Below are positions 6,881 through 8,728 of a stretch of 64,000 nt of DNA, piece after piece. Positions within the stretch are counted from its first letter, which is position 1, and the number at the start of each line of letters is the position of its first letter. The DNA is from Candidatus Latescibacterota bacterium (GTDB lineage Bacteria; Latescibacterota; UBA2968; GCA-2709665), in the NCBI GenBank assembly GCA_965219455.1, contig OZ244744.1, positions 1,120,001 to 1,184,000 of the forward strand. The letters run 5' to 3'. The translations under genes and the position numbers were made by a program. The notes under the pieces are model-generated. The model did not search any database, was not told the DNA's origin, and was given only the letters and a program-made list of their open reading frames with translations.

Positions 6881-8728
6881 TCAGTCAGTCCCCCCGAAAA
6901 CCCCATTCCGGACCCCGAAGATGTTCTTCGGATCCATGGCGTTCTTGGCCTGGCGCATGACCTGGATGCTGTTATCGGTCTGGATCTGGGTCAGAAATTC
7001 CCGCCTCACCTTGCCAACGCCATGGTGGTGCGACAACGACCCCCCGTTGTCCAGGATCACCTGGCGCAGCCGGTGTTCGATCGCGTGAAACGTCCGGCCG
7101 GGCTGTTCCAGGCCCTTGGCGTAGATGCCCATGGTAAAATAGATGCAGACTCCGGTATGATAGGTCTGCGTCACCCTGTACGAGAGATAGGGCTTCCCCG
7201 GTACGCCGTGCCGGCCGGCCTGGGCGACCAGTTCGCCGGATACCGCATCGCACACCTGGTGGATCCGGTCCCAGGGAACCGACGTCTCAAAGGTTTCGCC
7301 CAAGATGCCGTACTGATTCAGGAAGTCTCGAATATAGGCGATGCCGAACGTGAGTGAGTATCCCCGCCTGCCGTTGCTCGCGCCCGCGCTCCTGGCGCCG
7401 TACTTTTTCGCCAGGCTGAAGATCGTACGTTCCTGCTGACGCACTTCGGCGTGCGCGCCCTCCATAACGATGGTACATGCCGCCATCTTCATCGGATCGA
7501 AACCCAGGACCTTCAACAGAACGAACTTCTGAATCCGTTCTTTGACCCCTTTCAGGAACGTCGGCTCCGGCTTCAGGGCCTGACCGAAACGGAATTCGTT
7601 GTTGTTGACCAGGCGGATGCTCGCGGGCAGCATGCCTGTCTGCCGGAGCGCTTTCAAATAGGCAACACCCTTCTCGAAGGCCGGAAAGACAAGCGCCCCG
7701 TACTTGCGCGCCTCGGAGATCGGATGGATCTTCATCACGGCCGTAGTGATTATGCCGAAATTGCCCTCGCTCCCGAACAGCAATCCCCTCGGCTGAACGC
7801 CCGTCGAGTTCCTGGGCGTCACCCGGCGGGTCGCGATTTCCCCGGTGGGCGTCACCAGCGTCGCCTCGAGCACGATGTCTTCGATATTGCCGTATCGGTT
7901 CTTCTTCATCCCGCTCGCGTTTGTCGAAATCCACCCGCCCATCGTGGACAGTTCCACGCTATCCGGGTCGTGACCCGACGTATACCCCCTATCCCCCAGT
8001 ACCTGCTCCAGCCCCTTTCCCGAAATACCCGCCTCGACGCAGGCCTGCAGATTGGCCTCGTCAATCCACAGCACCCGGTTCATCCGACGCATATCCACGG
8101 ACACGATCGTGCGCCGCTCGTCGGCCGGACACGCCAGCGCCCCGCTCACGTTGGTCCCCCCGCCATAGGGCACCAGGCAGACGTCATGCTCGTTGGCCAA
8201 TTCGATCATGGCCTTGACGTCGGCTTCCTCTTCCGGATAGAACACCAGATCGACCAGCCGCGGAAGTGAATCTCCATACATCACGCGATACACTTCTTCA
8301 ACACTCAGTTGTCCGTGGCTGTGCACCAGCCTGGCTTTGGGATCGAACGAAACCTGCCCGTCTCTGAACCGTTCGTTCACCGCGTTCCCGAAAGCTGCTT
8401 CCACGTTCGGCTCAGGCTCTCCGATATCCTCGCGTTCTGCGTACGAGTCTTCCCTTCGTATCGTAATGCCCAGCACGTCCTCCACAAAGTCGACCAGAAA
8501 CGGCATCCGGTATCCCGAAATCGGGTACCTGTTCCCGGTTACCCTCAACGTCCGGTCGTCTACGAACTCGAACCGCGTATCCGTATATCCCCACTTGTGG
8601 GGGAATCGTTCCCCTTCCGAATGATCGAAAAAAGCGTCCGGTTCGTTTCCGGAACGCCTGCGTTTCGCCAGAAACACAATCGCAAGAACAACCGCTGCGG
8701 CAACCGCTGCTATTCCCCACTCTGTCAT
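6881..8728 (-). CDS. Alkyldihydroxyacetonephosphate synthase (AGPS/ADPS)-like FAD oxidoreductase with N-terminal membrane anchor
   Basis: GGGTNV, GHDPDS...[49 protein letters not shown] and [12 protein letters not shown] motifs. Confidence 0.9.
   Translation of the reverse strand: [615 protein letters not shown]

Follow-up and report, generated by a model that had tools for sequence, protein, structure and literature searches.

How does a bacterium come to encode a protein that reads like the animal alkyl-dihydroxyacetonephosphate synthase (AGPS), and what might it use it for? The question is raised by an open reading frame (ORF) at positions 6881..8728, minus strand, of a stretch of 64,000 nucleotides from a Candidatus Latescibacterota bacterium (GenBank assembly GCA_965219455.1, contig OZ244744.1, positions 1,120,001 to 1,184,000), referred to below as the window. 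An earlier note, made from the letters of the window, described its product as an unusually animal-like AGPS homologue with an N-terminal membrane anchor, and proposed either nearness to the bacterial origin of eukaryotic AGPS or transfer from a eukaryote. The data presented here point to a vertically inherited bacterial AGPS that is membrane-anchored and encoded in a four-gene ether-lipid operon, a joint reading to which we give a probability of about 0.82. The enzyme assignment and the anchor of the earlier note were thus upheld, while the special tie to eukaryotes was not.

Identity and fold of the AGPS homologue

The AGPS coding sequence specifies a protein of 615 aa (P0001) and opens at the first possible start past an in-frame stop. 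A Shine-Dalgarno-like GGGAG (8735..8739, on the minus strand, as are all features of the gene and its operon given below) is found 6 nt 5' of the ATG at 8728. The six protein blocks quoted in the note were all found in the translation. Two Pfam domains were recognised: FAD_binding_4 (PF01565, E 1.6e-38) at residues 160-299 (7832..8251) and the FAD-oxidase_C cap domain (PF02913, E 1.3e-35) at residues 338-604 (6917..7717). In a phmmer search of all PDB sequences, guinea-pig AGPS (4bby) was the best match (E 9.6e-150, 503 bits), and the alignment, which pairs residues 45-608 of P0001 with chain residues 95-656, takes in the AGPS-specific N-terminal domain. Dictyostelium ADPS (2uuu) followed with 296 bits, and the next family, of D-lactate dehydrogenase/GlcD type, reached 89 bits. 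The NCBIfam scan had no AGPS model to offer, and its top match was GlcD with 157 bits against a cut-off of 567.9. The resemblance of P0001 is thus to AGPS, as opposed to generic FAD oxidases, and is far beyond chance.

The AF2 model of P0001 (pLDDT 87.2), superposed on the mammalian enzyme as the note had proposed, matched chain 4bby_C with a TM-score of 0.94 and a root-mean-square deviation (rmsd) of 1.7 A over 572 columns at 41% identity; the TM-score with 2uuu was 0.86. The arginine of the IRL motif and the HHH loop, which the note had pointed out as features of mammalian AGPS, are in place: in the 4bby alignment, Arg372 (7613..7615) corresponds to guinea-pig Arg419, Tyr530 of the CIYF motif (7139..7141) to Tyr578, and His567-His569 (7022..7030) to the HHH loop of His615-617, which we take to be catalytic. 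All of these residues are invariant in alignment A2, which comprises 30 bacterial and eukaryotic AGPS sequences. Two further PDB entries bear on the same positions: 4bc7 is an Arg419His mutant according to its title, and 4bca, whose chain carries Tyr578Phe, differs from 4bby at precisely the position that pairs with Tyr530. P0001 is accordingly classed, from sequence and fold, as a canonical non-redox flavoenzyme, alkyl-dihydroxyacetonephosphate synthase (EC 2.5.1.26), and is predicted to exchange the acyl chain of acyl-dihydroxyacetone phosphate (acyl-DHAP) for a fatty alcohol.

The comparison with the mammalian peroxisomal enzyme (AGPS/ADPS, guinea pig, 4bby) reveals the same three parts, namely, the AGPS-specific N-terminal domain, the FAD-binding domain and the cap, at approximately 41-43% identity. 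The two differ at the N-terminus, where P0001 has an uncleaved-looking transmembrane (TM) helix followed by KRRR and the eukaryotic proteins carry a PTS2-like RLxxxxGHL, and in the fact that P0001, unlike mammalian AGPS, is encoded in an operon with pathway partners. A set of distant AGPS-like flavoenzymes (P0226, P0220, P0239, P0242 and others) resembles P0001 in overall length and in its two Pfam-type domains; these proteins are only 32-35% identical to metazoan AGPS, score approximately 245-310 bits where canonical members exceed 500, and form a clade of their own (support 100/100), to which P0001 does not belong.

The operon and the proposed ether-lipid route

A key question is which reactions the predicted synthase could be coupled to. 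Four genes follow one another head to tail on the minus strand, in the order fatty acyl-CoA reductase (FAR), AT646, AGPS and short-chain dehydrogenase (SDR), with gaps of 126, 90 and 61 nt. The FAR gene (10886..12520, 544 aa) matches Pfam NAD_binding_4 (E 7.8e-64) and Sterile (E 3.7e-16). The SDR gene (5995..6819, 274 aa), a candidate acyl/alkyl-DHAP reductase, matches Pfam adh_short (E 1.1e-42) and NCBIfam NF004825 (286.6 bits, cut-off 215), and it adjoins AGPS on the 3' side in 71 of 80 related loci. A scan of 5800-13200 for promoters and terminators gave counts no higher than those in shuffled sequences (3 vs 2.0 +/- 1.6 and 9 vs 6.5 +/- 2.4, respectively). Small contigs from RNA libraries (four runs of one study, labelled sponge metagenome) cover parts of all four genes within 5900-12700 at 95-100% identity, which hints that the genes are expressed; much of AGPS (about 7290-8860) is left uncovered, and such contigs cannot show absence. 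DNA-type runs of two other studies contain 90-100% of the sampled words of the same interval.

The fourth gene, AT646 (8819..10759, 646 aa), encodes a candidate acyl-CoA:DHAP acyltransferase in which a helical N-terminal domain (~350 aa) precedes a C-terminal one of PlsC/GPAT fold. NCBIfam yielded no match to it, and comparison with the PDB by sequence and by profile gave nothing meaningful (best E 2 and E 0.23, unrelated chains). Its AF2 model (pLDDT 83.1) has PlsC as the top Foldseek match, and residues 357-642 align in VIA-align with PlsC 5kym_B at Z 16.1 (rmsd 3.4 A, 222/232 residues), with human GPAT1 at Z 12.6 and with squash GPAT at Z 11.0; the helical domain had no clear structural match. 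Acyltransferase motif I is present as H445-QSML-E450 (9410..9427), i.e., HX4E, and H445 is invariant in alignment A1. In this alignment, the family consensus is FLPTHQSLLDH, with HX4E in the genus of our genome and HX4D in most relatives, and the blocks YPMGTT and IPIAFRG are also shared. Because the PlsC fold match (Z 16.1) coincides with an invariant H445 in an HX4D/E motif, AT646 is probably a member of the GPAT/PlsC (LPLAT) acyltransferase superfamily. Compared with PlsC and GPAT (PDB 5kym, 8e50, 1iuq), it has in common the fold of its C-terminal ~290 residues and the motif-I histidine, followed four positions later by an acidic residue, and it differs in its ~10% identity, the lack of a Pfam hit and the additional helical domain of ~350 residues.

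The wider distribution of AT646 follows that of AGPS. Beyond its own cluster, the neighbours of AT646 in the protein atlas are PF01553 clusters; 73 relatives were found, of which one has a precomputed PF01553 hit, and nearly all of those with a source name are annotated as hypothetical protein. Only one PF01553 acyltransferase is encoded elsewhere in the same genome. The AT646 gene was found in 132 of the 168 phylum genomes, also in those where it does not adjoin AGPS, and its pattern across families is nearly that of AGPS: 123 genomes have both genes, one has AGPS only, nine have AT646 only and 35 have neither, although related genomes in such a tally are not independent. In one large family (f4; G140, G132, G145 and others), AGPS and AT646 lie megabases apart, e.g., at 351,579 and 2,828,109 on contig 2 of G140. 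This separation, together with the nine genomes in which AT646 is found without a detected AGPS, indicates that the module is not always a single operon.

The types of partner found beside AGPS, namely, FAR by Pfam, AT646 by fold and motif, and SDR by Pfam and adjacency, allow a route to be proposed in which the substrates are inferred. FAR would reduce acyl-CoA to fatty alcohol; AT646, as a divergent acyltransferase of PlsC/GPAT fold, would make 1-acyl-DHAP; AGPS would swap the acyl chain for the fatty alcohol to give 1-O-alkyl-DHAP; and SDR would reduce the ketone to 1-O-alkyl-glycerol-3-phosphate, which could enter ordinary phospholipid synthesis. Folds, motifs and co-occurrence are observed, and with substrates and order deduced from them, the module is most likely a eukaryote-type ether-lipid route at the inner membrane. 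A search of the genome for PF10520 (PEDS1/CarF) gave no match, a weak negative since the search control matched in 0 of 14 genomes. Since no desaturase of PEDS1/CarF type was found, alkyl and not vinyl-ether lipids are expected, and the products are likely to be plasmanyl lipids (saturated, 1-O-alkyl) rather than plasmalogens.

The nearest described system is that of Myxococcus xanthus, in which MXAN_1676 and the operon MXAN_1676-1675-1674 are reported to pair a bacterial AGPS with a reductase-type protein and with the functions of FAR and an acyltransferase, as found here (PMC9131029, PMC13012113). There, FAR and a GNPAT-like acyltransferase are fused (FARAT), an arrangement given for myxobacteria and most eukaryotes (PMC13012113), whereas in the window they are separate genes and the acyltransferase belongs to a 646-aa family that escapes recognition by Pfam. 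Bacterial AGPS as such, from M. xanthus, and Agps homologues in Latescibacterota (PMC11868695) are therefore already known from such accounts; the accessible text of PMC11868695 and PMC13012113 gives no description of a clade-wide membrane anchor, of split FAR and acyltransferase genes or of the AT646 family.

Could the same chemistry serve other substrates or run in another direction, such as the remodelling or breakdown of host ether lipids, instead of de novo synthesis? The assignment of function from homology and context leaves room for this reading, as do habitat labels that suggest an ether-lipid-rich animal host and a report that disruption of the AGPS homologue of M. xanthus lowered ether lipids only slightly (PMC9131029), from which it follows that an AGPS homologue need not be the main route. 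The partners of P0001 are biosynthetic, however, and their order is that of the eukaryotic pathway (FAR for the fatty alcohol, acyltransferase, reductase); the catalytic residues are all conserved as well, so that we regard a non-biosynthetic role as improbable, while still the best placed of the alternatives.

If the biosynthetic reading holds, a whole class of Latescibacterota, with relatives among metagenome-assembled genomes (MAGs) of Poribacteria, Gemmatimonadota and Marinimicrobia, would carry a eukaryote-type FAR/acyl-DHAP/AGPS/reductase route as separate genes, with the acyltransferase step filled by a family now annotated as hypothetical. The four genes provide a concrete, testable set for tracing bacterial sources of alkyl glycerol ether lipids. 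A bolder proposal, against which the odds seem somewhat to lie, is that the Latescibacterota-type module (TM-anchored AGPS with separate FAR, SDR and AT646) makes up a full pathway to 1-O-alkyl glycerolipids that is bound to the inner membrane and needs no oxygen, and that AT646 represents an unrecognised family of DHAP acyltransferases that is not orthologous to GNPAT. Were this true, these abundant bacteria of sponges, sediments and the water column (Latescibacterota, Poribacteria, Gemmatimonadota, Marinimicrobia) would be major producers, so far overlooked, of the non-isoprenoid alkyl glycerol ethers in sponges and marine sediments. The AT646 acyltransferase, as the least described part of the operon, is the most interesting loose end.

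The predicted N-terminal anchor

Another important question is whether the enzyme is tethered to the membrane, as the earlier note had suggested, and on which side. The first 27 residues of P0001 contain a hydrophobic core at residues 5-21 (8666..8716; Kyte-Doolittle 17-residue maximum 2.85), directly followed by the KRRR cluster at residues 22-25 (8654..8665), and in the AF2 model, residues 3-27 form a helix that leads into a low-confidence linker. The positive-inside rule serves as a guide to the topology of membrane helices and places KRRR on the cytoplasmic side. To see how widespread such an N-terminus is, the best 120 homologues of P0001 were surveyed, of which 118 were usable. A hydrophobic helix ahead of the conserved WGY motif was present in 103 of the 118, and in 102 of these 103, the net charge on the N-side was <= 0 with at least one K/R within 12 residues after the helix; across the helix-bearing homologues, the mean net charge before the helix was -0.35, and Glu was often found at position 3.

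These flanking charges point to an N-out/C-in orientation. By the positive-inside rule, a non-positive N-side together with a K/R cluster after the helix would make the helix an uncleaved reverse signal-anchor that keeps the catalytic domain at the inner membrane, on its cytoplasmic side, where both lipid substrates of AGPS would arrive. Hydropathy, flanking charges and the AF2 helix agree on a membrane-tethered synthase, with tethering at the cytoplasmic face as the more interpretative part.

The opposite interpretation, a cleavable Sec signal peptide with the enzyme working in the periplasm or outer membrane, finds some encouragement in A-x-A-like triplets after the helix in certain relatives (e.g., ...AKRAHAEDV). 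The arrangement of charges is, however, the reverse of that of a signal peptide: a positively charged n-region is absent, the mean charge being -0.35, and the K/R cluster comes after the helix in 102 of 103 homologues. FAD loading and acyl-CoA-dependent enzymes such as FAR and the acyltransferase are, moreover, cytoplasmic. We consider secretion distinctly unlikely and retain the anchor reading.

The PTS2 nonapeptide has the consensus R-[LIVQ]-x-x-[LIVQH]-[LSGA]-x-[HQ]-[LA]; no match to this pattern was found before residue 45 of P0001, whereas it matched 4 of 11 metazoan AGPS rows (e.g., RLKMIAGHL, RLGLIAGHL), and the eukaryotic rows have an RLxxxxGHL-type, PTS2-like motif in the region where P0001 has its helix and KRRR. 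The replacement of a peroxisomal signal by a hydrophobic helix and KRRR, as claimed in the note, is thus seen in P0001, and an equivalent helix is seen in most of its close homologues. Because 103 of 118 of these have the helix and the more animal-like bacterial clade described below has neither helix nor PTS2-like motif, the predicted anchor is a trait of the bacterial clade of P0001 and not a peculiarity of this one gene. The synthase of this clade would therefore have a helix anchor at the N-terminus where eukaryotes use an organelle-targeting signal. A literature search by title or abstract found no description of a TM-anchored bacterial AGPS.

Relationship to eukaryotic AGPS

These results lead back to the question of origin: is P0001 unusually close to the animal enzyme, and if so, in which direction did the gene move? 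Among 30 representatives checked from the 150 best 50%-identity representatives of the P0001 search, there was no animal protein. Animal AGPS sequences were therefore obtained by a search with P0129, an AGPS from a metagenome contig, and 11 metazoan rows were compared over the aligned domain. The identity of P0001 to them was 42.7% on average and 44.8% at most. Named members of its own clade ranged from 41.0 to 44.3%, whereas another bacterial clade (P0355, P0386, P0405, P0395, P0380), in which P0355 and P0386 are labelled as Deltaproteobacteria MAGs, reached 47.6-48.7%. P0125 scored 569 bits against 4bby, compared with 503 bits for P0001. The M. xanthus protein MXAN_1676 is reported to be ~42% identical to human AGPS (PMC9131029). 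Because 42.7% is typical of its own clade and below the values of another bacterial clade, P0001 is not unusually animal-like, contrary to the claim of the note. The likeness to animal AGPS reflects the slow evolution of an old enzyme family and no special tie of the Latescibacterota lineage to eukaryotes.

Three trees were constructed: one with 99 rows (LG+G4), one with 47 rows and 566 columns (LG+C20+F+G4, PMSF) by a quick search, and one with the same 47 rows by a careful search. The 52 rows left out of the 47-row tree were redundant clade members, picked after the 99-row tree had been viewed. The distant AGPS-like clade (100/100) served as the outgroup, and the position of the root depends on it. 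All three trees show the same picture. In the careful tree, the eukaryotic AGPS rows form a single clade of 18 (96/94), within which Metazoa stand beside Capsaspora and other opisthokont rows, and the bacterial and unnamed metagenome rows form a separate clade of 25 (99/94). P0001 lies within nested bacterial groups of 8 (100/100), 13 (99/95) and 14 rows (99/98). With this rooting, the canonical AGPS of eukaryotes and of bacteria come out as sister groups. In the approximately unbiased (AU) test, forcing the 8-row clade of P0001 together with the 18 eukaryotic rows cost 100 log-likelihood units and was rejected (p-AU 0.000267).

The distribution of the gene is consistent with its position in the trees. 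The P0001 search returned 4102 proteins at E <= 0.001 among 8000 scored; the best 120 of the 4102 have 63-95% identity, and wherever a source is named, it is a bacterial MAG. Of the 600 pattern-matched stretches listed from species genomes, 504 encode a relative, and the closest loci among the matches listed, at 92% identity, are from Candidatus Latescibacterota MAGs. In its own genome, a single contig of 5,844,228 bp, AGPS is single-copy. At E <= 1e-80, a match was obtained in 124 of the 168 Latescibacterota genomes, with 21/21 in its own family, 29/31 and 71/76 in the other two large families and 0/31 in nine others. Identity is 88-93% among genomes of the same genus, 65-72% at the level of the family and, for most genomes of the order and class, 59-68%. 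The composition of the operon is native: the GC content is 0.595-0.617 (genome 0.583 +/- 0.037), and the tetranucleotide distance of 0.137 compares with 0.163 +/- 0.054 for random segments, 59% of which are at least as far from the genome average. Presence in most genomes of the phylum, identity that tracks kinship and native composition together suggest that AGPS is an old, vertically inherited gene in Latescibacterota. A Black Sea survey, which reports Agps homologues for 67 of its 92 Latescibacterota MAGs (PMC11868695), agrees with the 124 of 168 found here; its accessible text deals in BLAST hits and contains no mention of the anchor, the operon or an acyltransferase partner.

Against this background, the possibility that a Latescibacterota-type clade was the specific bacterial donor of eukaryotic AGPS has in its favour the sister relationship of the eukaryotic and bacterial canonical groups, and a published study regards AGPS as phylogenetically uninformative on the eukaryotic origin owing to 'insufficient phylogenetic signal' (PMC13012113). 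The clade of P0001 is, however, three supported nodes deep in the bacterial group, its union with eukaryotes is rejected by the AU test, the other bacterial clade is nearer to metazoans in identity (47.6-48.7% vs 42.7%), and P0125 scores 569 bits against 4bby where P0001 scores 503; the note's suggestion of a gene close to the bacterial source is therefore very improbable. Its other suggestion, a gene exchanged recently with a eukaryote such as an animal host, is the least credible of all, since the higher score to mammalian than to Dictyostelium protein (503 vs 296 bits) and the sponge metagenome label of the RNA libraries are outweighed by the separation of the metazoan rows from P0001 in well-supported clades, the AU rejection, a metazoan identity of only 42.7%, the kinship-tracking presence of the gene in all 21 genomes of the family and 124 of the phylum, and the native composition. 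By the trees, then, the Latescibacterota lineage appears excluded as donor or recipient of eukaryotic AGPS, while the eukaryotic origin itself is not settled by them. On this evidence, the AGPS of Latescibacterota, as neither donor nor recipient, would have no bearing on the origin of animal and eukaryotic ether lipids.

Several observations weigh against the reading of a vertically inherited, membrane-anchored AGPS in an ether-lipid operon. On the side of the trees, the bacterial clade of the careful tree counts 11 unnamed metagenome proteins among its 25 rows, and the trees were built without any verified Myxococcota sequence, MXAN_1676 included. The anchor is read from hydropathy, flanking charges and the AF2 helix, and 15 of the 118 close homologues have no N-terminal helix, which is thus not essential to catalysis. 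FAR and AT646 lie 5' of AGPS in only 26 of 80 related loci, and the genes found there in loci that lack them (L019, L072) are unrelated (FG-GAP, TPR, PPIase, FGAR amidotransferase). AT646 matches no Pfam family even at E <= 10, PF01553 included, and the RNA-library contigs may include DNA carry-over. The weak PF10520 negative and the slight effect of the M. xanthus disruption also count on this side.

Additional cases of AGPS relatives were encountered among the metagenome sequences. Six proteins from contigs of 15-52 kb (P0129, P0299, P0301, P0308, P0313, P0352) fall inside the otherwise eukaryotic clade, one of them, P0352, with a PTS2-like RLLILSNHL. Their contigs may be of protist origin or belong to bacteria that took up a eukaryotic gene. 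A further group (P0138, P0142, P0150, P0153, P0154, P0155, P0158, P0160, P0168 and others) comprises proteins of 1300-2700 aa that end in a full C-terminal AGPS domain and cluster in a clade of their own; fused multi-enzyme ether-lipid synthases are one possible explanation. In the window itself, the operon adjoins a low-GC stretch at 12600-26000 (0.518 vs 0.583 for the genome) with the appearance of a defence or mobile island; it encodes a DNA methylase (13014-14345) and a Type ISP restriction-modification enzyme (17738-21037), and several of its ORFs match no Pfam family.

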